DNA of 64,000 bases from Dehalococcoidia bacterium (GCA_022827095.1 JAJDTP010000021.1:130771-194770), one strand, 5' to 3'. Counted from the stretch's first letter, positions 1,244 through 39,734 are shown. The notes: generated by a model not told the origin, from the sequence alone. Translations and numbers: made by a program.

Positions 1244-1277
1244 GTCATTGCGAGCGCAGCGTGGCAATCTCGATGAC
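1244..1277. repeat. Short copy of palindromic repeat family 1 (GTCATTGCGAGCG...GCAATCTCG)
   Basis: gtcattgcgagcgcagcgtggcaatctcgatgac matches the left arm of the copies at 25193, 27077 and 39627. It lies between the ligase stop and the next gene start. Confidence 0.6.
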
Positions 1278-9232: not shown

Positions 9233-10417
9233 TCAGTAAGCCGCCCGCAGCACTTCCATAATCGGCCCGGCGTCCACCACCGGCTTGGGGTTGGTGCTCA
9301 GACTGCGGTCCTGCAACGTGGCCGTGGCAATATACTCCAACCCGTCCTCCGGCACTCCAACTTCGCGCAGGGTCCGAGGCAACTCCAGCTCGCGGCAAAG
9401 TTCGTCCACCGCGTCCGCGGCAGCCAACCCTGCCTCCTCGTCGGTCATCGTGGACCTGGCAACTCCGATGGCCTCGGCGATCAGACGCTGACGGTCGGCG
9501 CACGCGTCAAGGTTGTACCGCATGCTGTGCGGCAACAGGATGGCGTTGGCCTCCCCATGAGGCACGTCGTATAGCCCGCCCACGTGGTGACAGGTCGCGG
9601 TGTTCAGTCCCAGCCCACCGAAGGACGCCAGCGACGCCATGGCGCACGCGGTCTTAGTCGCCAGCAGGGTGTCGATGTCGCCATCCTTGCAACGGAGCAG
9701 GTTCTCAAAGAGCAGCCGGATCGCGTGCAGCGCCATGCCGTCGCCAATGGGGTTGTGTCCCGTGGAATACACCGTTTCGATGGCGATGCGCAGTTGACCG
9801 ATGGCTGTGGAGACCAGTATCCGCAGCGGCGTGGTCGCCAGCGCCCGCCCGTCGATGACTACCGTGCGATGGGTCACCCCGTCCCCAGCGATGCTGAGCT
9901 TGCGCCCCTGTTCGTGATCGGTGATGCCACCACCGCCCCGGCTGAACTCGGCGCACCCCATGGTGGTGGGCACGCTCACGATCGGAACCTTGGGCGACGG
10001 CGTGGGCGGCACGGTGATCTTGTCCGGCGGCTCGAAGATGATGGCGTAATCGCGGATGTCTCCGCCCTCCGCGAGCAGGACGGCGATGGCCTTGGTCGTG
10101 TCGTGGGTGCTACCCCCGCCGACGCTGATGAAGATGTCCGGCTGCGTTTCCTGCGCCATCGCCGCGCCGGCCTCCACCGTGTCCACCGGCGAATGGGGCG
10201 CCACGCCCGAGTACGTGCCCACGTACCGCGACCCCAGCGCCTCCTGGACGCGCGGCACCACGTCACACGCGCTGAGAATGGTGGGCCCGCAGGTGATCAT
10301 CGCACGGCTGGCGCCGAGGCCATCCACGGTCGCCGGCAGGTCATTTATCGCCGCCTCGTTGCAAATGATGTTCTGGTGCAGCGGATCGTATCGGTATCGC
10401 AGCGTGGAGGATGGCAT
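9233..10417 (-). CDS. Iron-containing alcohol dehydrogenase family (maleylacetate reductase-like)
   Basis: ISVGGGSTHDTTKA, and HHVGG..DVPHGEANA (metal-binding histidines). Confidence 0.85.
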   Translation of the reverse strand: MPSSTLRYRYDPLHQNIICNEAAINDLPATVDGLGASRAMITCGPTILSACDVVPRVQEALGSRYVGTYSGVAPHSPVDTVEAGAAMAQETQPDIFISVGGGSTHDTTKAIAVLLAEGGDIRDYAIIFEPPDKITVPPTPSPKVPIVSVPTTMGCAEFSRGGGGITDHEQGRKLSIAGDGVTHRTVVIDGRALATTPLRILVSTAIGQLRIAIETVYSTGHNPIGDGMALHAIRLLFENLLRCKDGDIDTLLATKTACAMASLASFGGLGLNTATCHHVGGLYDVPHGEANAILLPHSMRYNLDACADRQRLIAEAIGVARSTMTDEEAGLAAADAVDELCRELELPRTLREVGVPEDGLEYIATATLQDRSLSTNPKPVVDAGPIMEVLRAAY

Positions 10418-10440
10418 GGTGCGGACTCCTGGGCGGGTTG

Positions 10441-10638
10441 TCAGGCTGGGATTTGTTCGTAGGCAAAGTCGGGGATATCAATGCGCCGGCTGGCGTGTTC
10501 GATAGTGATGGCGCAGAGACGGCCGGTCTCGTCCAGGTCGAGCAGAGTGTTTTCATCCCAGTCGCGAGTTTCGCACACGGCATCAGGGCACAGCTCGATG
10601 TACAGCGTATCGGTGTCCGGGAAGTACTGTACTTTCAT
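10441..10638 (-). CDS. DUF2283 domain protein
   Basis: MKVQYFPDTDTLYIEL......DLDETGRLCAITIEHAS is the characteristic DUF2283 pattern. Confidence 0.75.
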   Translation of the reverse strand: MKVQYFPDTDTLYIELCPDAVCETRDWDENTLLDLDETGRLCAITIEHASRRIDIPDFAYEQIPA

Positions 10639-10783
10639 GGGCTGAATATCCCGTCAATAAAAGCGTTATGCGCCGTCTCGCCGCCGGCAAACAGGATAAC
10701 ACGCAAATACCTGCCGTCGAGTTGGGTAATCGGCCCCCATCGTCCAATACGTCCGTCCTATTCTTCCCTGACCGGATCGTCAA

Positions 10784-10993
10784 TCACCCGTTGAATCCAA
10801 TCCCAAGAGATAACCGGCCGATCAGTGCGATGGCAAGTAGGATGAAATTGTCGGTGAACCTCAGAGGGAATTTACGTCCACCAATGACGAAATGACCTAA
10901 ACCCCATTCATCCCGCCATTGGTTCACCATCTCGGTTGTAACCGTGTATCCCCTGTAGAGTATGACCTTGAAACGGTGCCACTCCAGATCCAT
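10784..10993 (-). CDS. Hypothetical small protein with C-terminal hydrophobic helix
   Basis: ATG-started part of ORF 10784..11065 in a lower-GC spacer. I recognised no family. Confidence 0.25.
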   Translation of the reverse strand: MDLEWHRFKVILYRGYTVTTEMVNQWRDEWGLGHFVIGGRKFPLRFTDNFILLAIALIGRLSLGIGFNG

Positions 10994-11113
10994 CGCCTCG
11001 ACCGTGTGACCTTCATCTCTGCCGCCAATCGCCGACCGACGGCCGGCAGGCCAATCACCAACCACTCCCGTTAGCGGAAGGGATAGGTACTCTCCCTATG
11101 GATATGCGGGGCG

Positions 11114-12811
11114 CTAATCAGTGTTGGGCGGTGGAAGCACGGCGAAGCCATGCCCCCAGGTATTGTTGGGGTCAGGAGTTTGTCGCTGTTCGGCGTGGTC
11201 TTTCAGATACTCGGCGACCTGCTCCGGGCCGTAGTGGGGGAAACGCTGCTTCACCAAGGCCGCCATGCCCACCAAATGGGGTGTAGAGCCGCTGGTGCCG
11301 CAGTACCGGCGCGGGTGAAAGCTTGCCGACTCACCACAGGTCGGTCCCACAATGTCGGGTTTGATCCGCCCATCGGGCGTGGGGCCGCGGCTGCTGTACC
11401 AGGCAATGGTGTGAATGTCTTCCCAATGGGCGGCGCCCACCGTCAGCACGCTCGGATTGGCGCTCTCTGCGGGGTTAATGATGCTGCCGCTTTCAGTATG
11501 GTGCTCGAGGCCCTGACCCCAGTAGAGCAATTGAATCCACTCAGGAACATCGCCATCCTGGCTGGATATGGCAACTTCGTACACTCCATCCCTGGGAGCC
11601 TGAAAGCGCAAGGTTTCATAGGGAACATCGCCCGCTCTTCCAGACTGTTCGCTTCTGCTGTGGGCAATGTGTTGCTGAGCGGCCGTATCCCAGATGTGGA
11701 GTTCAAGATTGCGGGACGCTGCCGCCCAGGTGTCATCCCAACGCAACTGGAATGAAGCCCTGTCACCTTCCTCCAGCGATATAGCATTGCCATCATTATT
11801 GCTGGCGAAGTCGATAAAGGTATCGCCGTCTGCATCCGAGAAAGGGGCGCGTTTGAACCAGGTGCCTGTCGCGAAATTCCCTGCTGGGACGACAAACATG
11901 ATTCCGCCGTTCACTCCCAGGTCCATCAATCCCAACGCGCTCAGGGGATCCGGTGAGGTCCCGTCTCCAGGACCTTCGAAGCGGCCGAACCCGTAGAGTG
12001 TGGCAACGGACACACCCTCTTCGACCATCCAATTGACCGTATCTCTCAGGTCCCGCTTGTTCCGTACCCTGGCAATGTAGAGTGACACACCGGGGGCTGT
12101 GTCTATAATGGTCTCCGTGGTCGCCGTACCGTGAACATCGCCATTCTCGCAATCCTTGAGGGCGCTGGAGAACACGCCACCAGCGTCCGTGTAGCATCTG
12201 ATCCCCACCGGGGATGGCAACTCCTGCCCTACGAGACCGGCGAATCCTTCAAATCCGGTTTCTATTATCCCCACCTTGACGCCTTGACCCTTGTACCCGG
12301 CCTCATGCCAGGGTAATGCGCCAACGACGTTGACTCCCTCGCTGGTGAAGTCGCCGCTTATGGGTTCTGGCCTTGCTGTCGGCGCTGGTGTCGGAACGGG
12401 CGTCTGGGTTGGTGCAGGGATAAGGGTCGGCGCCGGTGTAGGCGTGGGTGTGGCTGTCGGCGCTGGCGTAGGAACGGGCGTCTGGGTTGGTATAGCGGTA
12501 AGGGTCGGCGCCGGTGTAGGCGTGGGTGTGGCTGTCGGCATTGGCGTAGGAACGGGCGTCTGGGTTAGTGTAGGCGTAAGGGTGGGCTTGGGAGTGGGTG
12601 AGGCAGGCGACGGTGTTGCCGTAGGATTTACGGTAGCGGACAGAAAAGTGGTGGGGGGCGGCCCAACGGCTGTTACGGGTTCCTCTGTGGCCTCGCTCAA
12701 AGATTGCTCGCTGACGCAGGCGATCAGCAGGGTGGAGACCAGTGCTAGGAAGAGCAGATGGTAAACCCTTTTTGAATGCCGAGTCTTCATCGTTTTCCTA
12801 GCCCAACCCAT
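11114..12811 (-). CDS. S8 (subtilisin-like) serine peptidase, probable lipoprotein, with Pro/Thr-rich repeat linker
   Basis: Signal/lipobox LLIAC. HGTATTE (His), VPAGN (oxyanion) and GTSGSTPHLVGMAAL (Ser). The Asp-box position reads VGIIETGF. An alternative start lies at 12790. Confidence 0.85.
   Translation of the reverse strand: MGWARKTMKTRHSKRVYHLLFLALVSTLLIACVSEQSLSEATEEPVTAVGPPPTTFLSATVNPTATPSPASPTPKPTLTPTLTQTPVPTPMPTATPTPTPAPTLTAIPTQTPVPTPAPTATPTPTPAPTLIPAPTQTPVPTPAPTARPEPISGDFTSEGVNVVGALPWHEAGYKGQGVKVGIIETGFEGFAGLVGQELPSPVGIRCYTDAGGVFSSALKDCENGDVHGTATTETIIDTAPGVSLYIARVRNKRDLRDTVNWMVEEGVSVATLYGFGRFEGPGDGTSPDPLSALGLMDLGVNGGIMFVVPAGNFATGTWFKRAPFSDADGDTFIDFASNNDGNAISLEEGDRASFQLRWDDTWAAASRNLELHIWDTAAQQHIAHSRSEQSGRAGDVPYETLRFQAPRDGVYEVAISSQDGDVPEWIQLLYWGQGLEHHTESGSIINPAESANPSVLTVGAAHWEDIHTIAWYSSRGPTPDGRIKPDIVGPTCGESASFHPRRYCGTSGSTPHLVGMAALVKQRFPHYGPEQVAEYLKDHAEQRQTPDPNNTWGHGFAVLPPPNTD
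12375..12600. repeat. Tandem 78-bp repeat (about 2.9 units) encoding the PT-rich linker of the S8 peptidase
   Basis: Units at 12375..12452, 12453..12530 and 12531..~12600. The first two are near-identical and each encodes 26 aa (PTATPTPTPAPTLTAIPTQTPVPTPA). Confidence 0.85.
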
Positions 12812-13368
12812 CGTATTGGGCGTGGCGGGCAGCTATATGCCGTGGAACTGTGTCATCCAGCGCGGGAAGGCCGATGGGCCAACCGGATCGGCCGGAAGGG
12901 CAAGTGCAATCATCCTGGATCGTGGGCGTCAAGTTCTGCGTCGTACTCAACAAGTTCGGCTTGGTGGCTGATTGAAAGTGCGCCACTGCCAACGTCCATG
13001 ACGGAACCTTCCAGTCCTTGTTCGCTCACTATGCCGGTCAAATATCATCTTGCCGGACACCGGATTTCACCGTGCCAAAGACGACTCGACCAACCTCAAG
13101 ATATGACGTCGCGGCCAGTGGAACGGGCAAATGATTGTGGAGACCTTCTCGCCATGATCTCCGCGGTATGGAATACCAAAGAGATGCGGCGCCTAGTATA
13201 GGTTGGTTTCCAAGATCACCAAGCTTACGCTATCGCTCCATTCAACATCCTGGCGCAATGGCATAGATTGGATGCTGACCACCAAGGACGGGTGCGCCTC
13301 TCCATTGTTCAATTCAGCCTCAGAACGCTAACTAGCGTCAATGGCTAGTATTGCCATACCAACACTGC

Positions 13369-13905: not shown

Positions 13906-14886
13906 TCACGTCGTCCAGACCGGCCGCCGCTTTTCCAGGAACGCCGATATGCCCTCCTTGGCGTCATCGGCCAGGAGGTTGTCGACCATCACCTTGCTGG
14001 CAAACTGATACGCGGAAGGCCGGTCCATCTCGATCTGTTGGTAGAAAGCGGCTTTACCCAACGCCAGCGTGTGCGCGCTCGCCGAGGCAATCTGCCGCGC
14101 CAACTCATCAACCTGCTCCTCCAGCTCATCGGCCGGAGCAATCCTGCTGATCAAGCCGAACTCCAGGGCTTCCTGCGCGGAGATCGGTTTGCCGGTCAGC
14201 AGCATTTCCATCGCCTTTTTCGGCATCACCGAACGCGCCACCGCCACGCCCGGCGTGGTGCAGAACAGGCCGATCTGCACGCCTGGCGTGGCGAACGCCG
14301 CGGTGTCTGCCGCCACCGCAATGTCGCAGGTGGCTACCAACTGGCAACCCGCCGCCGTGGCCAGACCCTGGACCTGAGCGATCACGGGTTTCGGCAACAG
14401 CCTGATGGCTTCCATCACCCGCGTGCAGGCTTCGAACACCGCCGTATATTCGGCCTCTTCGCCGTTTACCAACTCATTCAGGTCGTGCCCCGAACTGAAC
14501 ACCGGCCCCTCCGAACGGATGACCACCACGCGGGCGTCGGGGTCGTTCGCAATCCAATCCAGCCATTCTTCCAACGCCGCCAGGGTGCGCGAAGACAACA
14601 CATTGCGCTTTTTGGGGTTGGTCAATGTCAGGACGGCGATACCGTCCTGTGCCCAGTTGTAGTCAACCGTCAGCGGTTCGTATTCTTCCGGCTTGGCCGG
14701 GCGAACCTGCGTGCGTTCCGTATAGGCAACCGCGATGGTATTGCCGGCCGGGGAGAAGAACTCAACCATGTAAGCTTCCGCGCCGGGGAAAACGTGAACT
14801 ACCGTCCCTCTCTTACCGGCTTTCAAACCGTGCTCCAACAAATCATCGGTTAGCACGATGATGTCATGCTCTTCAATCACAATCAC
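13906..14886 (-). CDS. DUF4926 domain fused in frame to an enoyl-CoA hydratase/isomerase (crotonase) domain
   Basis: The N-terminal ~65 aa (MIVIEEHDIIVLTDDLLEHGLKAGKRGTVVHVF.GAEAYMVEFF) match DUF4926. The remainder (GIAVLTLTNPKKRNVLS, FSSGHDL, QGLATAAGCQL) is crotonase-like. No ATG/GTG/TTG lies between the two domains. Confidence 0.8.
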   Translation of the reverse strand: MIVIEEHDIIVLTDDLLEHGLKAGKRGTVVHVFPGAEAYMVEFFSPAGNTIAVAYTERTQVRPAKPEEYEPLTVDYNWAQDGIAVLTLTNPKKRNVLSSRTLAALEEWLDWIANDPDARVVVIRSEGPVFSSGHDLNELVNGEEAEYTAVFEACTRVMEAIRLLPKPVIAQVQGLATAAGCQLVATCDIAVAADTAAFATPGVQIGLFCTTPGVAVARSVMPKKAMEMLLTGKPISAQEALEFGLISRIAPADELEEQVDELARQIASASAHTLALGKAAFYQQIEMDRPSAYQFASKVMVDNLLADDAKEGISAFLEKRRPVWTT

Positions 14887-15221
14887 CTCTCACGGGGATA
14901 AGCGCTGATAAGCCTGGGAACATCGCTGCCGTGGTCATATATCCAAACAGTTCTCACACACGGATTGCGCTCGTCCGGGGTATTCAGAATACCATCAACG
15001 GTGCAAACTGGCCCGTGTGGAGTTTCGGTGACGGAGGTGACTTCATGGCTTGCTCCATGAATCCGGAGAGCCTCTGCCAAGATCCACCACTGCTCCCGGT
15101 TGAAACCGAATTGGAGCAGATACTTGGCTTTGCTGCCACCATCAGCATGCTCAAGCGCAAGCAGATAGTCCCTGGCTTTCGCTACTTGAACCCAGGCGTT
15201 CTCGGCGTTCGTCAGTCTCAT
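14883..15221 (-). CDS. DUF6883-like protein
   Basis: ATG 15221 lies directly after the acyl-CoA dehydrogenase stop. ARDYLLALEHADGGSKAKYLLQFGF......TVWIYDHGSDVPRLISAYP resembles DUF6883. The stop overlaps the next start by 4 nt. Confidence 0.6.
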   Translation of the reverse strand: MRLTNAENAWVQVAKARDYLLALEHADGGSKAKYLLQFGFNREQWWILAEALRIHGASHEVTSVTETPHGPVCTVDGILNTPDERNPCVRTVWIYDHGSDVPRLISAYPRER

Positions 15222-15223
15222 GC

Positions 15224-16396
15224 CTACCCACGCGGCAGGCCCAACCCCCGGCTGGCGATGATGTTGCGCTGGACCTCGCTGGTTCCGGCCGCGATGGTGT
15301 GGGAGAACGCCCGGAGCCAATGCTCCTGCATATCGGCTTCCATCGGGGTCCATTTCTCGTCCCGGAGTCCGCCATACATACCCATAATTTCCAGGCAGGA
15401 AGCGGTTGTCCGTTGCACTGTCTCGCTGCCGAAGACCTTTGACATCGACGCTTCCTTGTTCGGCACCAGTCCTTCACCCTGCATCCACGCCACGTTGTAC
15501 GCGATCAGCCGCGCCACCTCGCACTCGATGTAGCGGTCAGCCAGCGCGTTTCGGACCCACGGCTCCTGGCTGAGCGGCTGTCCATTCCGCCGGATCCCGT
15601 CAGCCCACTGCCGCGTGTCGTCCAGGTGCCGGCGAGCCGCCGCTGAGTAGTCGATGCCGGACCGCTCGAAGTCCAGCAGCGTCACCGCCACGTACCAACC
15701 CCGATTCTCCTCGCCGACGATGTTCCGCGCCGGCACGCGCACGTTGTCGAAAATCACCTGGTTGAACTCGTGGCGGCCGCCCATGTTGATGATGGGTCGC
15801 ACCTCGATCCCGGGCGTTTTCATGTCGACCAGGAAAAAGCTGATGCCACGGTGCTTCGGCGCGTCGGTGTCGGTCCGCGTCAGGAGCATGATCCAGTCGC
15901 CCCGGTGTCCCATGGAAGTCCATATCTTGCTGCCGTTGATCACAAACTCGTCGCCGTCGCGGATGGCCCGCGTGCTCAGCGACGCCAGGTCGGAACCCGA
16001 TTCCGGCTCGCTGTATCCCTGGCACCACTGCACTTCGCCCTTGGCCACCGGCGGCAGGTGCTCGGTCTTCTGCTCGTCCGTGCCATGGATCATCAACGTT
16101 GCGCCCATCATCCGGACACCGAAGTTGTCCCGACCGGGAGCCCGGTGGTAAGTCATTTCCTCGTTGAAAATGGCCGTGCGCACCGGCGAAGCTTTCTGAC
16201 CGCCGTACTCCTCAGGCCAGTGCATAGTCAGCCAGCCCCGGTCCGCCAGCTTGCGACGCACTTCCAGAGTGCGTTCCCAATTTTCCTCACCGGAGCCCCG
16301 TTCTCCCAGCTCCCATTCCGGAACGTATTCGTCGTCGATGAACTGCCGCAAGTCACTTCGGAAGGTGGCGTCGGCGGTGCTGAGTTGGAACTCCAT
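15224..16396 (-). CDS. Acyl-CoA dehydrogenase
   Basis: MEFQLS start inside ORF 15224..16468. QGYSEPESGSDLASL, INGSKIWTS and C-terminal IAAGTSEVQRNIIA. Confidence 0.9.
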   Translation of the reverse strand: MEFQLSTADATFRSDLRQFIDDEYVPEWELGERGSGEENWERTLEVRRKLADRGWLTMHWPEEYGGQKASPVRTAIFNEEMTYHRAPGRDNFGVRMMGATLMIHGTDEQKTEHLPPVAKGEVQWCQGYSEPESGSDLASLSTRAIRDGDEFVINGSKIWTSMGHRGDWIMLLTRTDTDAPKHRGISFFLVDMKTPGIEVRPIINMGGRHEFNQVIFDNVRVPARNIVGEENRGWYVAVTLLDFERSGIDYSAAARRHLDDTRQWADGIRRNGQPLSQEPWVRNALADRYIECEVARLIAYNVAWMQGEGLVPNKEASMSKVFGSETVQRTTASCLEIMGMYGGLRDEKWTPMEADMQEHWLRAFSHTIAAGTSEVQRNIIASRGLGLPRG

Positions 16397-17901: not shown

Positions 17902-18375
17902 CTAGTTATCGAACTTACCTGAGTTTTCCTTGCGGGTTCCGTTGCGCGTGGGTGGCGGCTCGGTGAAGGTCAGCCCATCGCGCTCCGCCGCCTCCCGACG
18001 TTCGTTCCAAGTTTCCCAGGCGCGGTTGGCTTCCTCGCGGCCTTCCTCAAGACCCTCTTCACGGCCTTCCTGACGCACTAAGTCACGATACAACTTGGCC
18101 AGTACCATGGGCATGCCCTCCACCAATCCGAACGCCAGCGGGAATGCGACGCCAACGGTTACCGCTGCGGCGACGATGGCGATTATAACAATTTCGGGCC
18201 ATGCCAGCGGCATGTCCTCCGCCGTCGCTACCCGCGCGTAGCTGAGGAGGCCGGCCAGAACTGTCCACAGAGTGTAGAACGCCGCCAGGAACCAGCCGTT
18301 TCGTCGGATCAGAACATCAAAAGCGTTGGCTCTGACATCCCGAACTCCATGATCCGGGTTACTTCTGCTGGCCAT
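17902..18375 (-). CDS. Hypothetical membrane protein with charged C-terminal tail
   Basis: ORF 17902..18402. Two hydrophobic segments are followed by a REEGLEEGREEANRAWETWNERREAAERD tail. The start is uncertain and overlaps the panB end. Confidence 0.4.
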   Translation of the reverse strand: MASRSNPDHGVRDVRANAFDVLIRRNGWFLAAFYTLWTVLAGLLSYARVATAEDMPLAWPEIVIIAIVAAAVTVGVAFPLAFGLVEGMPMVLAKLYRDLVRQEGREEGLEEGREEANRAWETWNERREAAERDGLTFTEPPPTRNGTRKENSGKFDN

Positions 18376-19201
18376 CCAACAGATCGGCCAGGAGGCTTTC
18401 ATTCATCGTAAAGCTCTCCGCTTCCGAGGGAAACGCTCCGGTCCTTACATCCTCCGCATACCGCTCGAAAGCCCGGGTCATATCGGACCCCATCTCCGCA
18501 TACTGCCTGGCGTGCTTTGGAACGAAATCCGGGAACAGTCCCAGCATGTCGTGAAAAACCTGGACCTGACCGTCACAGTACGGACCCGCCCCAATGCCGA
18601 TGGTCGGAATGGTCAATCGCTCGGTGATCGCCCTGGCCAGGGGAGCCGGCACACACTCCAGCACGACCGAGTACGCTCCGGCTTCCTGCAGCGCCAACGC
18701 GTCGTCCAGCACGCGCCTTGCCGCGGCCTTGGTACGCCCCTGCACCCGGTATCCCCCCAGAGCGTTCACCGACTGCGGTGTCAACCCGATGTGACCCATC
18801 ACCGGCACGCCGGCGTCCACGATGCGTCGCACCGTGCTCGCTACGGCGACGCCTCCCTCCATCTTCACGGTGTGCGCTCCGCCCTCCTGCATCAGACGGC
18901 CGGCATTGCGCAGCGCTTCCGCTGCATCGACCTGGTAGGACATGAACGGTAGATCGACCACAACCAACGCCTGGGAGGCGCCCCGGCTCACCATGCGCCC
19001 GTGCCGGACCATATCGTCCATGGTTACCGGCACGGTGGAATCATAACCCAGCACCACCATACCGAGGCTGTCACCTACCAGGATGATCGGGATGCCGGCG
19101 GCGTCGGCAATACGCGCGGCCGTGTAATCATAGGCGGTGACCATGGGGATTTTTTCCCCGGCCCGCTTCATCTCGGCCAGTTGTCGGATCGTAATCGCCA
19201 T
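18359..19201 (-). CDS. panB: 3-methyl-2-oxobutanoate hydroxymethyltransferase
   Basis: IPMVTAYDYTAARIADAAGIPIILVGDSLGMVVLGYDSTVPVTMDDM and VKMEGG. Confidence 0.92.
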   Translation of the reverse strand: MAITIRQLAEMKRAGEKIPMVTAYDYTAARIADAAGIPIILVGDSLGMVVLGYDSTVPVTMDDMVRHGRMVSRGASQALVVVDLPFMSYQVDAAEALRNAGRLMQEGGAHTVKMEGGVAVASTVRRIVDAGVPVMGHIGLTPQSVNALGGYRVQGRTKAAARRVLDDALALQEAGAYSVVLECVPAPLARAITERLTIPTIGIGAGPYCDGQVQVFHDMLGLFPDFVPKHARQYAEMGSDMTRAFERYAEDVRTGAFPSEAESFTMNESLLADLLDGQQK

Positions 19202-25193: not shown

Positions 25194-25302
25194 TCATTGC
25201 GAGCGAAGCGCGGCAATCTCGTTGGGGCAAGGAACGCTACTGCGGGAACAAGATCGCCACGTCGCTGCGCTCCTAGCGATGACAAAATGGATACGCGTGA
25301 GC
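25193..25302 (+). repeat. Palindromic repeat family 1, copy A
   Basis: gtcattgcgagcgaagcgcggcaatctcgtt...gatcgccacgtcgctgcgctcctagcgatgac followed by the tail aaaatggatacgcgtgagc. Same architecture as 27077..27187. Confidence 0.85.
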
Positions 25303-27076: not shown

Positions 27077-27187
27077 GTCATTGCGAGCGCAGCGCGGCAA
27101 TCTCGTTGCGACAACAGACGCCGGCTCTGTGAACGAGATCGCCGCGTCGCTGCGCTTCTCGCGATGACAAATTGGATACGCGTGAGC
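27077..27187 (+). repeat. Palindromic repeat family 1, copy B
   Basis: gtcattgcgagcgcagcgcggcaatctcgtt...aacgagatcgccgcgtcgctgcgcttctcgcgatgac followed by the tail aaattggatacgcgtgagc. Same orientation as copy A. Confidence 0.85.
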
Positions 27188-33809: not shown

Positions 33810-34107
33810 AGTGGCCCTCCCATTCGTGTTGATCTCGTATCCTGCTCAGCACAATTCTACCAAAATACGCCCGACTATCACCCCGTGACCGCTCCAAAAC
33901 GCAACCCGCCGCCGGGCTTGTGTCGCCAGTAATCAGCCTGCGCAGCAATGCCGGGCCGTCAAAATCTCCGACTCACTCTAACGCCCCCGCAGCGCTTGGC
34001 ATCGGAGCCTCTGCGACCTCCCCCTTTGAACGTGTTCGCTTACGTTTCAGTTGACCGATGTTTACTGCCTTGTTAGAATGCCCGGCAGTCTATTAATTCG
34101 GGCGGTC

Positions 34108-34725
34108 ATGCTTACAATCGGTCTAACGGGCGGTATTGGAAGTGGCAAAAGCGTAGTTGCCGAGCTACTCCGAGCGCAGGGCGCTTCGATTATCGACGCC
34201 GACAGGCTGGGCCACGAGGCTTACGCTCCGAACTCCGAAGCTTGGCGCCAGGTCGTTGCAGCCTTTGGAGAGGACATTCTAACCACGGAAGGCGAAATCG
34301 ATCGGCGCAAACTCGGCTCCATAGTGTTCGCTGACCCGGCACAACTCGAGCGGCTCAACGGCATCATGCATCCGCTGATGGCTCGAATGGTCGAGGACCG
34401 CAAAACTGGCCTCGCTGCCGACGGCGTTGAGGTTGCGGTGGTGGAAGCTGCGGTGCTCTTCGAAGCGGGTTGGGATAAGCTGGTCGACGAAGTCTGGTCC
34501 ACCCACACCCCGGCCGACATGGTCGTAGAACGCCTGCGTCAACGCAACGGAATGACCGAAGAGGAAGCCAGAAAGCGAATCAACTCGCAGATGCCGGCCG
34601 AAGAACGCAACGGGCGTTCCGACGTGGTGGTCGAAAACTCCGCCGATTTGGTCGCATTGGAAAGCGAAGTGGCAGTTCTGTGGCAGGCTCGAGTCAAAGG
34701 AAAGGTAAATCAAGGCAATGGTTGA
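34108..34725 (+). CDS. coaE: Dephospho-CoA kinase
   Basis: [24 protein letters not shown], and VPLLFE-like VLFEAGW. Confidence 0.85.
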
Positions 34726-35629
34726 AGCAAACATCGAAATGCTGGAAGACGAACCCAGTTTCAAAGAGTTCGCCATCGAAGAGTTCCTGGTCCGCAGCGA
34801 GCCGTACTACCGCGCCGTCGGCGATGAGCTGGAACTGTTCGAGGCCGCCTACGAGCAGCACATCCCGGTCCTGCTGAAGGGCCCCACCGGGTGCGGCAAG
34901 ACTCGCTTCGTCGAGTACATGGCGTGGAAACTAGGCCGACCCATCACCACCATCCGGAGCGAAGGGGCTCAGGAGATGCGGGAAGGCGAGGTCCGCGTTC
35001 CGCTGGTGACCATTGCCTGTCATGAAGACCTGACCGCCAGCGACCTCGTCGGACGCTATCTGCTGGATGCCAACGGCACCCGTTGGATCGACGGCCCCAT
35101 GACCCGCGCCGTCAAGGCCGGGGCCATCCTGTACCTTGACGAAGTGGTGGAAGCCCGTAAGGACACCACCGTGCTGATCCATCCCCTCACTGACCATCGG
35201 CGAATCCTGCCCGTGGAGAAAACCGGAAACATCATCGAGGCGGACGATCGCTTCCTGCTTTGCATCTCCTACAACCCTCACTACCAGAGCGCCTTGAAGG
35301 ACCTGAAGCACAGCACCCGCCAGCGGTTCATCTCCATCGAGTTCGACTACCCGCCGGTGGACGTCGAAGCTGAGATCGTGGCCAAAGAGAGCGGCTGCAA
35401 CGAAGAACAGGCCCACGCCCTCGCTCGCCTTGGTGAGAAGATCCGGAACCTCCGGGAGCATGGTCTTGCCGAAGGCGCCAGCACGCGCCTCCTGATCTAT
35501 GCCGGCCGGCTTATGCAGCAGGGTATCCCCGCCCGTCGCGCCTGTCAGGTGGCCATTGTGTGGACCCTGTCCGACGAGACCGAACTGCAGCAGAGCATCG
35601 AAGAGGTGGTGTACTCCATCTTTGAGTAG
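34718..35629 (+). CDS. MoxR-class AAA+ ATPase of the CbbQ/NirQ/NorQ type
   Basis: Walker [14 protein letters not shown], Walker [11 protein letters not shown], and a sensor/Arg region STRLL. It overlaps the coaE stop by 8 nt. Confidence 0.85.
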
Positions 35630-35643
35630 ATGATGGAACCTCA

Positions 35644-36240
35644 ATGGGTGCAATCACCCTCGATCTAGTCCGCAACGCGCTGGCCAACCGCCAGCAGGTT
35701 ACTGCCGCCGCTGAAGGCCTTATGCCGGCGGCAGTAATGCTATTGCTATACCCCAAGGACGGCGAGTTCTGCGTCCTGCTGAACAAGCGCTCCATGACGG
35801 TTGAGCACCACAAGGGCGAAATGTCGTTCCCCGGCGGGGCCCGGGATCCGGAAGACGCGGATTTCGAGGACACCGCCCGACGCGAAACCGAAGAGGAGAT
35901 GGGCATTGCCCGGCATGACATAACGATCCTGGGACGCCTCGACGACAATGTCACCCGTTCCAATTTCCTGGTGAAAGTGTTTGTTGGGACGATCCCTTAT
36001 CCGTACCAGTTCAGCCCCAGCTCACACGAAATCGCGGAAGTTGTCGAAATTCCGATCAACGTTCTTCGCGATCCTTCAACCCTGCGCTGGGACTCCCGGA
36101 TCGAAAATGGCGAGAGGATTTCCGTGCGTTCCTACGGCTACCAGCAGCATCTGGTCTATGGAGCCACTGCCAAAATCCTCGACCAGTTTCTCGATACCAT
36201 TGATGCCGAGTTGACAAAGGAGGGCACGAGCCTTGACTAA
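35644..36240 (+). CDS. Nudix hydrolase with CoA-pyrophosphatase-type signature
   Basis: LLNKRSMTVEHHKGEMSFPGG keeps the spacing of the NudL/NUDT7 CoA motif. Nudix box GGARDPEDADFEDTARRETEEEMGI. Confidence 0.75.
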   Translation: MGAITLDLVRNALANRQQVTAAAEGLMPAAVMLLLYPKDGEFCVLLNKRSMTVEHHKGEMSFPGGARDPEDADFEDTARRETEEEMGIARHDITILGRLDDNVTRSNFLVKVFVGTIPYPYQFSPSSHEIAEVVEIPINVLRDPSTLRWDSRIENGERISVRSYGYQQHLVYGATAKILDQFLDTIDAELTKEGTSLD

Positions 36241-39200
36241 TTCCGCTACAGGCGATCTGCTGGACGAACTGGCCAAACTCCCGCCGGCAGTTGCCGAAGC
36301 CTACCAGGCCGTCGCCGACGCCATGGCCGAGTCCTTCAGTGACGAGGAAACGGCTCTTTGGGCCCGCGAGGGCGTCGCCATCGGCACCCAAACCGTCCGC
36401 TCCTGGGAGTCGGCGGTCGAATACTACCGCGTAAGCCCCGAGGTTGCGCGGTCCCTCGCCTTTGCTTCATTCATGCAGTGGGCGCGCTGTGGGACCTACC
36501 TGTCCCAGGACTCGCCGACTCTGGCGGTTGCCTTCTTCAAGGCCAGCCCATCCATCGTCACCAACCTCCGGCCCCAGTACATCCCGCGCTGGGCTGGGCT
36601 GGGTCGCTCGCTCTACAAGGGCACCTGGAAATCCAGCACGCTGGCCGCCCGGTTCTTCGAGGTTAGTCCCGACCTGGTGCGCAACCTGCCTTTCTGGGAC
36701 GTGGAAGTTTTCGCATCACTCATCGAGGCGCTGTCCTACAAGTCCTACGACGTCGCCGCCGAGTGCCTGGTCCTGGGTCGCGACGTTCTGCCGGCCATGG
36801 GTCGCGAGCGGGAGGCATTCCTGTCCATGTCCCGCGCCCTCACTGACAGCAGTTGGCGCGAGGTCAAGGCCTGTTTGGAAATGGCCCCCCGCGCGCTCCA
36901 GCACGTCGAAGAGGGCCAGACCGGCCGGTTCCTGCGCCTCGGCGAAAAGCTCGCCAAGATGGGCCTCCGCGACACCTCCCGGTTCCTCTACGACGGTGCC
37001 CAGGCCCTGTCCCACGTTTCCGCGGGGTCACAAGGCCACATCCTCGACCTGTGCGACGGCCTGCTCGCCAGCTCCCCGGACGCCGTCCCGCCCTTCCTGA
37101 AGAGCCTGGACCCGGTGCTCAACCGAATCACCCTGCAACAGCTCGACCAGTGGTACCAGCACGGCGTAGAACTGCTCAACGAGAACCCCGAGAGCGGCAT
37201 CGCATTCTTCAAGATCGAATCCAATACCTCGGAATCCATGCTGGAAACCCTTTCCTCCAGCCTGGACCTGGAACGGGTCAAGGGCATCATGCGCCTCTAC
37301 ACTCGCGCCCTGTCCGGCGAGAACATCGAGGTGCTTTCGACGGCCGAGCTCGTCCGTCGTCAGATTGGCTGGGTCGACCAGGACACCGCGTCCACCGACG
37401 GCACCAAGGTCTACCTGCCCCCGGTCATCGACAACTACAACGACAAATCGCAGAACTTCGCGTGGTTCAAGGTCGTGGCCACCCACCAGGTCTCCCACCT
37501 CGAATTCGGCAGTTTCCAGTTCGATTTCGTCCGTCCCGCCAACGTGTTCGATGATCGCCGGTTCCCGATGGAAGAAGCTATCCAGGCCCGCATCGAAGCC
37601 ATCCGCACCGCAACCGCCGAGCACTTCCAACTGCTGGACTCCGACACTGTGCCTTCTATTGAAGTCGGCGACGGTCCCGGCGGCACCATGCGTGTCTACA
37701 CCGACATCGGCCGGTTCCTGTCCCTGTTCGAAGACCGCCGCATGGCCTTCGACCTTTTCAGCGTGCTGGAAGACTGCCGGTTGGACTATCGCATCAAGAC
37801 CGAGTACCCCGGCATCCGCCGCCCGGCATTGGACGTGCAGGGCGACGCCCTCACCCAGCGCCCGCGTGTCGAAGAGCTGCCCCTGCAGGAAGCGCTGATC
37901 GAGTTGCTGGTTCACATGAGCCTGGACCGCTTCGAGGGTCTGCCGGTGCCGCAGGACTATCGGGAAGAAGCGATCATGCTTGCCCGTATCATGCACCGCC
38001 TGCGCACCGTCCGCGCGTCCATCGAGGACACCGCCGAAGCGGCCCTGCGTGCCTACGAGATCATCTCCCGCCTCCAGAACCAGCAGGAACCGGAGGACGA
38101 GTTCCAGCCCGAGGACCTGGACGATCCCGGCGAATTCTCCGAGGAAGAGTACCAGGCTCTGCTCGACAAACTGCAGGCGCAGATGAGTGAGCAAGACGGC
38201 GAGCAGGGTGAGGGAGACCCCTACGAATCCCCCGAGCCCGTTGAGTATCGCGGCGACTTCAAGCCGGAAATGGTCCAGTTGCTCACCAAGTTGCAGATGG
38301 ACCAGAGCGAGATGGGCGACGCCGAGCCCATGACCCAGGAGGAACTCGAGCAGTTGCTCCAGGACAGCGCCGAACTCGAACTCGACGCCCAGGAAGGCGA
38401 CGTCGACCAGAGCATGGCCATGTTCGCCCAGAACATCATGAAGGAAGCCGGCGTTCCCCCGCCGTCCAACGACCCTGGCCGCGGCTACGGTCCCATCCTC
38501 CACGACGACGACGCCGGCGGTGAGCTGGAGGCCCTGGAGCCCAAGACCTTCGTCTACGACGAATGGGACTTCCGCGCCAACGACTACAAGCCGCGCTGGT
38601 GCATCGTCAAGGAGAAGGTCCTGGACGAAGGCGACCCCAACTTCTACAACGACTCCCTCCGCAACTATGCCTCGCTGCTGGCTCACATCAAGCGCCAGTT
38701 CGAGCTCATCATGCCGGAGACCTGGCGCAAGACCTACCGCCTGATCGACGGCGAAGACATCGACCTCAACTCAGCCCTCGAGGCTTGGGCCGACCTGCGC
38801 ATGAACGTGCCCCCGGACGAAAAGATCTACTGGCGCCGCAACCGCGTCGAACGCGACGTTGCCGTGGTCTTCCTCCTGGATATGTCAGCGTCCACCGCCG
38901 AAGCCATTGACGAGGGCCGCCACTCAGTGGACGACCGGGATGCTCCCGACGATCCGGTGGAATACATGGTCTGGCTCCGCCGCCGCCGCGAGGGCTTGGT
39001 GCGCCGCCACTACAAGCGCATCATCGACCTCGAGCGCGAAAGTTGCGCCCTCCTCATCAACGCCCTGGAGTCCATCGGCGACACCTACGGCATCTACGGC
39101 TTCTCCGGCTATGGCCGCGAGAACGTGGAGTTCTACGTCATCAAGGACATCGAAGAGCAGTTCAACGACAAGATCAAACGGCGCATCGACAAGGTGACCC

Positions 39201-39541
39201 CGCTCCACGCCACCCGCATGGGTTCGGCCATCCGGCACGCCATCACCAAGCTGGAAAATCAGGACGCGGCGACCAAGATCATGTTCCTGATCTCAGACGG
39301 CCGCCCTCAGGACCGGGGTTACAGCCGCGAGGGTGTGGAAAAGGAATACGCCGTCCACGACACTCACCAGGCCCTGTTGGAAGCCAAGCGCAAGGAAATC
39401 AACCCCTTCTGCCTGACCGTCGACAAGGCCGGCCATGACTACCTGAAGACCATGTGCGGCGACCTCAACTACGAGGTGCTGGACGACATCTGGGCCCTGC
39501 CGGAACGGCTGCCCATGCTGTACCGGTCGCTCACCATGTAG
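36233..39541 (+). CDS. Large (1102 aa) CbbO/NorD-like protein with C-terminal von Willebrand factor A domain
   Basis: The TTG start overlaps the Nudix stop. MIDAS VVFLLDMSASTAE, later GFSGYG and MFLISDGRPQD. Long alpha-helical N-terminal region and an acidic insert. Confidence 0.8.
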   Translation: MTNSATGDLLDELAKLPPAVAEAYQAVADAMAESFSDEETALWAREGVAIGTQTVRSWESAVEYYRVSPEVARSLAFASFMQWARCGTYLSQDSPTLAVAFFKASPSIVTNLRPQYIPRWAGLGRSLYKGTWKSSTLAARFFEVSPDLVRNLPFWDVEVFASLIEALSYKSYDVAAECLVLGRDVLPAMGREREAFLSMSRALTDSSWREVKACLEMAPRALQHVEEGQTGRFLRLGEKLAKMGLRDTSRFLYDGAQALSHVSAGSQGHILDLCDGLLASSPDAVPPFLKSLDPVLNRITLQQLDQWYQHGVELLNENPESGIAFFKIESNTSESMLETLSSSLDLERVKGIMRLYTRALSGENIEVLSTAELVRRQIGWVDQDTASTDGTKVYLPPVIDNYNDKSQNFAWFKVVATHQVSHLEFGSFQFDFVRPANVFDDRRFPMEEAIQARIEAIRTATAEHFQLLDSDTVPSIEVGDGPGGTMRVYTDIGRFLSLFEDRRMAFDLFSVLEDCRLDYRIKTEYPGIRRPALDVQGDALTQRPRVEELPLQEALIELLVHMSLDRFEGLPVPQDYREEAIMLARIMHRLRTVRASIEDTAEAALRAYEIISRLQNQQEPEDEFQPEDLDDPGEFSEEEYQALLDKLQAQMSEQDGEQGEGDPYESPEPVEYRGDFKPEMVQLLTKLQMDQSEMGDAEPMTQEELEQLLQDSAELELDAQEGDVDQSMAMFAQNIMKEAGVPPPSNDPGRGYGPILHDDDAGGELEALEPKTFVYDEWDFRANDYKPRWCIVKEKVLDEGDPNFYNDSLRNYASLLAHIKRQFELIMPETWRKTYRLIDGEDIDLNSALEAWADLRMNVPPDEKIYWRRNRVERDVAVVFLLDMSASTAEAIDEGRHSVDDRDAPDDPVEYMVWLRRRREGLVRRHYKRIIDLERESCALLINALESIGDTYGIYGFSGYGRENVEFYVIKDIEEQFNDKIKRRIDKVTPLHATRMGSAIRHAITKLENQDAATKIMFLISDGRPQDRGYSREGVEKEYAVHDTHQALLEAKRKEINPFCLTVDKAGHDYLKTMCGDLNYEVLDDIWALPERLPMLYRSLTM

Positions 39542-39569
39542 GTCGCGGTCACGGGGAGTGCAAAATATT

Positions 39570-39597
39570 AGGGGCGAATGACCATTCGCCCCTTTTT
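39570..39597 (+). terminator. Rho-independent terminator
   Basis: aggggcgaatg-ac-cattcgcccct followed by tttt, 29 nt after the VWA stop. Confidence 0.8.
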
Positions 39598-39626: not shown

Positions 39627-39734
39627 GTCATTGCGAGCGAAGCGCAGCAATCTCGTTGGCGCAAGGAAGTCCTCCTGTGCGGAAGTTGTCGTTACGGCGT
39701 CGAGATTGCCACGGCGCAAGTGTTTCGCGATGAC
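39627..39734 (+). repeat. Palindromic repeat family 1, copy C
   Basis: gtcattgcgagcgaagcgcagcaatctcgtt...cgagattgccacggcgcaagtgtttcgcgatgac. Confidence 0.8.

Follow-up and report, generated by a model that had tools for sequence, protein, structure and literature searches.

A coaE-linked CbbQ/NorQ-type AAA+/VWA gene pair with a long adaptor and a variable hydrolase slot in Chloroflexota

Few pairs of a MoxR-type AAA+ ATPase and a VWA (von Willebrand factor A) protein have known clients, namely Rubisco, the nitric oxide reductase that depends on cytochrome c (cNOR), carbon monoxide dehydrogenase (CODH), methanol dehydrogenase and the chelatases, and each of these has brought to light a new principle by which enzymes are repaired or metallated. 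The described systems closest to the locus considered here are the NorQ/NorD pair, for which the plasmid order norC-norB-norQ-norD is found, and the CbbQ/CbbO pair, whose genes follow those of Rubisco in the order cbbLS-cbbQ-cbbO (PMC5437159). The present analysis concerns positions 34108-39597 of a 64,000-nt stretch of DNA from a Dehalococcoidia bacterium (contig JAJDTP010000021.1), henceforth referred to as the window, which is annotated from about 8 to 64 kb. There, an AAA+ gene and the gene for a 1102-aa VWA protein stand behind coaE, the dephospho-coenzyme A (CoA) kinase gene, and are separated from each other by a Nudix hydrolase gene. The locus very probably encodes a remodelling machine of the CbbQO/NorQD type that belongs to a clade distinct from both, while a link of that machine to CoA is proposed tentatively.

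An operon encoding an AAA+/VWA pair

Four co-directional open reading frames were found on the plus strand: coaE (34108-34725, 205 aa), the AAA+ gene (34718-35629, 303 aa), the Nudix gene (35644-36240, 198 aa) and the VWA adaptor gene, which begins with TTG (36233-39541, 1102 aa). They lie where the original prediction, made from this DNA by itself, had placed them, and they agree with the public gene calls on the same contig, in which the VWA protein is likewise 1102 aa long. The junctions were also as described: coaE and the AAA+ gene overlap by 8 nt, a 14-nt gap precedes the Nudix gene, and the end of the Nudix gene overlaps the TTG start of the adaptor gene by 8 nt. A sigma-70-type promoter-like site (34051-34079, + strand) consists of TTGACC, a 17-nt spacer and TAGAAT with an extended TG before the -10 element, matches the consensus at 10 of 12 positions and lies 29 nt 5' of the coaE ATG. 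The strong terminator expected at 39570 was recovered as an intrinsic terminator (39570-39593, + strand) with a 10-bp stem containing six G-C pairs, a 4-nt loop and a TTTTT run. An Rfam scan for riboswitches or other RNA elements upstream of coaE and inside the operon gave no match at E values up to 1. The close junctions, the promoter-like site, the terminator and the recurrence in other genomes bear out the tight coupling that had been claimed. Because the arrangement recurs in dozens of divergent genomes it is not a product of chance, and coaE, AAA+, Nudix and VWA genes are read, on sequence grounds, as one genuine operon.

The first product is, by sequence, a standard dephospho-CoA kinase. 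It matched PF01121 (E = 2.7e-52), reached equivalog level against TIGR00152 (176 bits versus a cut-off of 65.6) and contains both the P-loop and the DAD motif.

The AAA+ protein carries AAA_5 (PF07728, E = 3.6e-27) and CbbQ_C (PF08406, E = 5.9e-30) domains, and its similarity to proteins of solved structure is high, with E values of 4.7e-103 and 5.6e-92 for CbbQ (5c3c and 6l1q, 50-54% identity) and of 4.3e-86 for NorQ (9qhd; 9qh4 also about 1e-85; 49-50% identity). Walker A, Walker B and the helix-2 insert with its GRxLL motif, the contact to the VWA finger (PMC13036017), align to both. The Midasin AAA modules were matched as well, at E = 1e-37. These features place the protein in the CbbQ/NorQ/GvpN (CGN) subfamily of MoxR ATPases. 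Its position within that group was addressed with a small neighbour-joining tree of 30 sequences, without bootstrap support, that included the solved CbbQ and NorQ proteins, plasmid norQ products, amidase-linked and other orphan pairs, and, from several phyla, the AAA+ proteins that accompany long VWA proteins. The tree contained a NorQ clade, a clade of CbbQ with the amidase-linked proteins, and a third clade holding every long-VWA partner, the window AAA+ included. An insertion of 8-25 aa between alpha1 and beta2 is shared by the whole third clade and by no other protein in the tree; in the window protein it occupies residues 80-94 of the alpha1-beta2 loop. The placement proposed in the original prediction as a check thus puts the protein outside both the NorQ and the CbbQ clades, and it appears to represent a third CbbQ/NorQ-type clade.

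[quoted passage not shown] Four parts were distinguished in an AlphaFold2 model of the full-length protein (mean predicted local distance difference test score, pLDDT, 81.8). Residues 1-345 (36233-37267) are all-helical, with about eight HEAT-like repeats of about 37 aa modelled at a pLDDT of about 90, and a profile built from 28 diverse homologues matched the symplekin HEAT repeats here (E = 2.5e-4). Residues 346-640 (37268-38152) are homologous, by profile alignment, to the N-terminal domain (NTD) of NorD and CobT: the profile aligned weakly to NorD 36-117 and 156-198 and, at E = 2.8e-4, to CobT 99-269. This middle domain has the invariant residues P396, N408, H418, F509, R516 and G527; modelled separately it reached a pLDDT of 89.8, and comparison of that model with structures in the PDB returned no fold match. 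Residues 641-770 (38153-38542) form an acidic linker (26% Asp plus Glu) of low pLDDT that is mostly disordered and is analogous to the linker described for NorD (PMC13036017). Residues 771-1102 (38543-39541) make up the VWA domain.

No family in Pfam or NCBIfam matched the N-terminal 750 residues, and a Foldseek search with the full-length model matched the VWA domain alone. For residues 1-750, where structural modelling had been advised, AlphaFold2 and the profile together give a HEAT-like domain followed by a NorD/CobT-like NTD. A zincin-like domain was considered from the conserved motifs THQxxH..E and EDxRID and was rejected, since the second His is not conserved and the confident model has no structural match.

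In the VWA domain (PF00092, E = 1.9e-7, residues 944-1077), the MIDAS that had been read from DMSAST and SDGRPQD is intact: both motifs are present, and D883, S885, S887, T994 and D1022 are invariant across 28 diverse homologues. The phmmer alignment paired residues 686-1100 with NorD 270-643 (9qhd_G, E = 4.7e-33, 117 bits), and by Foldseek the VWA model matched the NorD VWA domain (9qh6_G, E = 5.9e-16, TM-score 0.78) as well as the MIDAS domain of MDN1. A YDEWD hairpin, a putative finger region and a C-terminal LPxRLPxLYRxLT tail were identified. Residues 772-875 align to the pre-MIDAS segment of NorD, where the finger is located, the putative finger being partly of low pLDDT; the tail, LPERLPMLYRSLTM, aligns with LPQIYRQL of NorD. 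The insert of about 35 aa follows DxSxS and is specific to the family.

Among solved proteins NorD is the closest relative of the adaptor. Both have a VWA domain with MIDAS and a YxEWD hairpin, a finger that in the adaptor is putative, a C-terminal LPxxYRxL tail, through which NorD contacts the AAA+ ring, and the same succession of NTD, disordered linker and VWA domain. The identity of about 26-29% is concentrated in the last 330-410 residues, and proteins of the NorD/CbbO type measure about 640-770 aa; the adaptor has in addition its 345-aa domain and its MIDAS-side insert. With CbbQ/CbbO, the Q6O1 MoxR AAA+/VWA complex, the pair shares AAA_5 plus CbbQ_C, including the H2-insert GRYLLD..GTRW, a C-terminal VWA domain with intact MIDAS, and the order AAA+ then VWA behind another enzyme gene. 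CbbO, compared through the literature, has about 760 aa (PMC5437159), in contrast to the 1102 aa of the adaptor with its HEAT-like domain. CobS/CobT and Midasin/Rea1 are distant relatives, recognised through the CobT NTD, Midasin AAA and MDN1 MIDAS matches; unlike CobS/CobT, the window pair has no CobN-like partner, and its AAA+ protein carries CbbQ_C rather than CobS-type domains.

The Nudix protein (PF00293, E = 1.4e-14) is predicted to be CoA-pyrophosphatase-like, with a CoA-type substrate. Its best NCBIfam family is the CoA pyrophosphatase PRK10707, matched over the full length at E = 2.9e-26, with the runner-up family trailing by 20 orders of magnitude (E = 6.8e-6); the score of 92.2 bits does not reach the equivalog cut-off of 134. 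Every match among solved structures (E = 1e-15 to 2e-13) was a CoA pyrophosphatase, the five distinct sequences representing the three enzymes NUDT7, AtNUDX11 and DR1184. The motif LLNKRSxxVEHHKGEISFPGG and the catalytic box REtxEEmG are kept across 54 operon-linked Nudix orthologues. The original prediction had claimed for one segment the spacing of the CoA-pyrophosphatase signature; this signature, located upstream of the catalytic box, we take to read LLTxR[SA]x3[RK]x3Gx3FPGG. In LLNKRSMTVEHHKGEMSFPGG the spacing and most of the positions are kept, with N in place of T and E in place of R/K. The protein thus resembles NudL, NUDT7/8, AtNUDX11 and DR1184 in its best PDB and NCBIfam matches, full-length alignment and catalytic box, and differs from NudL/NUDT7-type enzymes in its sub-cut-off score and at these two signature positions.

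Conservation of the coaE linkage and variation around the pair

A full-library search with the VWA protein returned 4159 clusters (50% identity) at E values up to 1e-3 and 1353 at E values up to 1e-30, counts that mix shorter NorD-like VWA proteins with the long form; among the best 150 clusters listed, many members are 1000-1130 aa long, at identities down to 27%. The scan of species-representative genomes gave at least 598 matches, of which the best 80 loci were analysed by tblastn with the four window proteins. All 80 belong to Chloroflexota, among them the isolate Tepidiforma flava, and homologue names likewise assign the window, from a marine genome, to the class Dehalococcoidia (SAR202-like) of that phylum. 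Wherever a Chloroflexota genome locus contains an AAA+ gene and extends upstream of it, the order coaE-AAA+-VWA was found (73/73 loci, with VWA identity as low as 40%). It recurred in 12/12 further metagenome loci having upstream sequence, while the genes flanking the operon vary from lineage to lineage. The coaE linkage on which the original prediction turned is thus kept throughout these Chloroflexota loci. Exceptions among Chloroflexota loci with upstream sequence are L064 and L065, from Dehalococcoidia metagenome-assembled genomes, where the 10 kb to each side of a full-length VWA gene at about 10001-13200 contain neither an AAA+ gene nor coaE.

The slot between the AAA+ and VWA genes is far more variable. 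It holds the Nudix gene in 54 loci and a phosphoesterase gene of about 200 codons (Metallophos_2, PF12850, E = 5e-25 to 5e-30) in 13, is empty in nine, and in one locus (L052) contains a short-chain dehydrogenase/reductase (SDR) gene. A PhnB-like gene is inserted at L018/019/045. At L039 (6811-9200) a DNA methyltransferase-like gene and small open reading frames separate the AAA+ gene from the Nudix gene, and at L072 (5937-9930) lipoprotein, cyclophilin-like and dockerin-like genes surround the phosphoesterase gene; foreign genes at these two loci indicate that the intergenic slots are permissive. On the VWA tree the Nudix loci form a SAR202-like clade, the phosphoesterase loci fall within a Tepidiforma-like clade, and empty slots are basal or scattered, a pattern that implies about one gain each for Nudix and phosphoesterase. 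The four-gene unit put forward in the original prediction is accordingly not the entity that is conserved: the Nudix gene is clade-specific and missing from nine Chloroflexota loci and from all loci outside the phylum. A Metallophos_2 enzyme in the slot that is taken by Nudix in the sister clade fits an accessory role for the hydrolase.

Outside Chloroflexota, long-form relatives were detected in Spirochaetota, Deltaproteobacteria and many metagenome contigs. A CbbQ_C-type AAA+ gene lies immediately 5' of the VWA gene in nearly all of these loci that have upstream sequence; the long-form loci L137 and L154 gave no AAA+ match within the upstream flank. Neither coaE nor a Nudix or Metallophos_2 gene was seen beside the pair in the non-Chloroflexota loci examined. 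When 24 such loci were searched for a recurrent conserved neighbour as a client candidate, the AAA+ gene alone was universal. In L085, and likewise in the lineage of L143/155/157/164/166/175, an enoyl-CoA hydratase (ECH) gene stands directly 5' of the AAA+ gene; as the two ECH types share only 26-30% identity, the associations arose independently. In the latter lineage a small alpha/beta-hydrolase gene precedes ECH. In L085, where the long VWA protein is distant (29% identity), the AAA+ gene overlaps the ECH gene, and a 472-aa DUF169-CoaE fusion is encoded at 13999-15417 (- strand), 3 kb from the pair; among the loci seen outside Chloroflexota, no other has a CoaE domain in its vicinity. Further neighbours include acyl-CoA dehydrogenases (L177, L086), MeaB with a B12-binding gene (L175), and thiolase, DUF35 and AMP-binding genes (L169, a Miltoncostaea plasmid). 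One Spirochaetota locus has a metallo-beta-lactamase (MBL)-fold hydrolase gene 30 nt 3' of the VWA gene. For a shorter subfamily of about 690 aa (metagenome loci such as L099, L104 and L105) the match to the long form is confined to residues ~370-1056, so that the HEAT-like domain is missing, and the 8 kb upstream contain no AAA+ gene.

Public names for homologues of the adaptor are 'VWA domain-containing protein', 'hypothetical protein' or 'NorD', the last of which is misleading; shorter relatives of 650-790 aa bear uninformative names or 'NorD'. NCBIfam has no curated family for the adaptor and Pfam gives the weak VWA match only. In the literature no paper was found that connects CbbQ to Nudix or deals with the pair in Chloroflexi, and none on this AAA+ clade, its coaE linkage or the hydrolase slot.

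Candidate clients and competing explanations

The original prediction held that the operon has no visible client. Its statement that the window contains no Rubisco, nitric oxide reductase or chelatase gene was confirmed for the annotated parts, in which CODH genes were likewise not found, and cbbLS/cbbM and norCB were absent both from those parts and from the genes that recur in the flanks of the 80 related loci. In place of the cbbLS found upstream of cbbQ, and of the norCB that accompany norQ and norD, the window has coaE, with a Nudix gene between the genes of the pair. While no classical client is nearby, the claim may nonetheless be wrong, for known systems encode the client directly 5' of the AAA+ gene and coaE occupies that client position. 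The separation of the pair by the Nudix gene, which had been presented as a departure from such systems, is real and not unique: in the bona fide nor cluster of a Sphaerotilus sulfidivorans plasmid (L174, 4071-9713), ordered norC-norB-norQ-[4Fe-4S protein]-norD, a 4Fe-4S gene splits norQ from norD.

The client-upstream pattern is illustrated further by amidase-linked pairs, which also stand behind the gene of a soluble enzyme. On the Roseibium aggregatum plasmid NZ_CP045632.1 (L171, 5747-10057) an aliphatic amidase gene is followed by genes for a CbbQ-like AAA+ protein and a 746-aa VWA protein; this pair lies 3' of an ANTAR regulator gene and a urea-type ABC transporter. An Acidithiobacillus caldus plasmid (L170) has a similar orphan CbbQ-family pair with an amidase, and a match there taken at first for CbbO proved to be a truncated VWA protein beside the amidase. 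These arrangements suggest an amidase-directed MoxR/VWA system and are, we presume, reminiscent of Pseudomonas amiB. In contrast to the window protein, the amidase-linked AAA+ proteins group with CbbQ, lack the insertion and are unrelated to CoA.

The explanation that we favour, with a probability of roughly 0.4 for the whole, is that the pair is a remodeller serving a CoA-binding enzyme and is assisted by a hydrolase that destroys the released ligand. Its mechanistic templates are the NorQD cryo-electron microscopy structures (PMC13036017, PMC9976466) and the CbbQO biochemistry (PMC5437159). By homology to NorQD and CbbQO, six AAA+ subunits would ring one adaptor, with the pore taken up by the VWA finger and the post-sensor-1 loops contacted by the C-terminal tail. 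Hydrolysis of ATP would twist the VWA domain against the N-terminal domains and strain a client held between these and the MIDAS face. That client would be an enzyme binding CoA or a CoA-like nucleotide, as gene context suggests, because the pair stands behind coaE in Chloroflexota and behind ECH in two unrelated lineages. The slot hydrolase, Nudix or Metallophos_2, would cleave the expelled nucleotide-diphosphate ligand and so prevent its rebinding, and CoaE would then help CoA resynthesis; since some lineages do without it, the hydrolase would be an optional accessory. Rubisco activase with xylulose-1,5-bisphosphate (XuBP) phosphatase is the model for such activase-plus-inhibitor-hydrolase logic, and for the cleavage of nucleoside-diphosphate-X compounds Nudix enzymes and metallophosphoesterases offer classic analogues. 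The CoA-dependent enzyme client that had been suggested earlier fits the recurrence of ECH and acyl-CoA dehydrogenase genes beside the pair in other phyla, whereas the activase/inhibitor-hydrolase mechanism is still conjectural.

Several points weigh against this explanation. The argument from recurrent hydrolases draws on few independent events, about one gain each, and the slot also takes unrelated genes (SDR, PhnB-like, DNA methyltransferase). Nine Chloroflexota loci and most loci of other phyla have no hydrolase, coaE is never adjacent outside Chloroflexota, and the DUF169-CoaE fusion near the L085 pair, a lone case, could be coincidence. CoA genes form abundant paralogue families, the CoA-related neighbours are raw occurrences not corrected for background, and L083, L084, L176, L090 and L092/093 have no such neighbours. 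Moreover, coaE is a housekeeping gene, and genes of this kind often stand in conserved mixed operons. The client itself is a proposal drawn from gene context.

In the main rival explanation, which we consider doubtful and still a serious contender, the pair would be a chaperone, for remodelling or for metal insertion, whose client is encoded elsewhere and has nothing to do with CoA; coaE would be a co-transcribed housekeeper and the Nudix gene, like the other genes seen in the slot, an opportunistic insertion. This reading accounts for the unrelated slot genes of L052, L018/019/045, L039 and L072, for the confinement of Nudix and of the phosphoesterase to one clade each, for the nine empty slots, for the want of both coaE and Nudix outside the phylum, and for the VWA genes of L064 and L065 that have neither AAA+ gene nor coaE within 10 kb. 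It does not explain why coaE and the AAA+ gene are adjacent in 85/85 loci despite VWA identity falling to 40%, CoaE identity of about 45% and change on both flanks, a persistence over deep divergence that implies selection on the linkage. It is also at odds with the nature of the stable slot occupants, both from families that include nucleotide-diphosphate hydrolases and one of them, Nudix, specifically of the CoA type near a CoA-biosynthesis gene, and with ECH directly 5' of the AAA+ gene in two independent lineages.

A variant in which CoaE is itself the client is unlikely. Here a dedicated activase in Chloroflexota would open the kinase and expel a tightly bound dead-end nucleotide (for instance CoA, one of its adducts or a dinucleotide of the bisubstrate type), which Nudix or Metallophos_2 would destroy; outside Chloroflexota, crotonase-fold CoA enzymes would be what the machine services. 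Were this true, a kinase of cofactor biosynthesis would for the first time be found to have an activase, and the repair of enzymes through AAA+ remodelling would reach into CoA metabolism.

Improbable, too, is a role of the pair in supplying an enzyme with its metal, as NorQD does with FeB in cNOR and as CobST and the chelatases do, with the adjacent Nudix, Metallophos_2 or MBL enzymes as clients or parts of a metallation pathway. The closest solved relative of the adaptor, NorD, is a metal-insertion factor, the adaptor profile matches the CobT NTD, and all three hydrolase types are metal-dependent. Many lineages, however, carry the pair with no adjacent hydrolase, so the hydrolases are not its general client, and neither a metal transporter nor a metallochaperone is encoded alongside the locus in the window or in the flanks of its relatives. 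Nudix enzymes bind Mg or Mn loosely, and we know of no need for an insertase among them.

That the locus is a bona fide CbbQO or NorQD system with its client encoded elsewhere in the genome is very improbable. The AAA+ similarity to CbbQ and NorQ (E = 1e-103 to 1e-85) and the public annotation of some homologues as NorD would favour it, yet the AAA+ protein falls outside both clades with its clade-specific insertion, the 1102-aa adaptor has an extra domain and just 117 bits to NorD, the annotated window has no Rubisco or nitric oxide reductase genes, and the members of the family from Spirochaetota, Deltaproteobacteria and heterotrophic Dehalococcoidia stand in surroundings free of Rubisco and nor genes. 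A nucleotide-controlled conflict or anti-phage MoxR-VWA system with Nudix as effector or regulator is scarcely credible, for although conflict systems can include MoxR-VWA modules and Nudix enzymes and the P-loop region has a weak PADLOC match to IetA (E = 1e-5), the VWA, CoaE and Nudix proteins have no PADLOC match above noise and the locus is single, vertical and syntenic across the whole class, beside housekeeping genes and with no mobile-element context.

Surrounding sequence and meaning of the locus

A repetitive extragenic palindromic (REP)-like intergenic element with the invariant core GTCATTGCGAGCGMAGCGYRGCAATCTCG, which carries an ATTGC...GCAAT inverted repeat, is present in four copies on the plus strand of the window (1246-1275, 25195-25224, 27079-27108 and 39629-39658), compared with 0.04 expected; the last copy sits just past the operon terminator. 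Two additional Nudix genes lie on the minus strand 10-14 kb 3' of the operon, at about 49.8-50.6 kb (265 aa; L167 5098-5895) and 52.6-53.1 kb (166 aa, with a Zn-ribbon; L167 7873-8373), beside phosphoribosyltransferase and PfkB kinase genes, which indicates a genome rich in Nudix paralogues. Genes for CoA and pantothenate metabolism are dense in the window. They include panB (18359-19201, - strand), 15 kb from coaE, and an enoyl-CoA hydratase gene with an N-terminal DUF4926 (13906-14886, - strand; with its neighbours, L168 12806-15296), which comes after genes for a DUF6883 protein and an acyl-CoA dehydrogenase.

The machine type encoded here is familiar, being the CbbQ/NorQ-type MoxR-VWA machinery; what is new is the third clade, the long adaptor and the distinctive operon context, and the locus is a member of a third branch of the CbbQ/NorQ group that is large and lacks annotation. 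A testable lead to the class of client comes from three features together, namely the linkage to coaE, which is invariant, the nucleotide hydrolases, which are interchangeable, and the ECH genes that recur nearby, and a cultivated carrier exists in Tepidiforma flava. If the link to CoA is true, CoA-dependent or CoA-biosynthetic enzymes would need ATP-driven reactivation. This would then be relevant to SAR202, which is among the most abundant lineages of the deep ocean.

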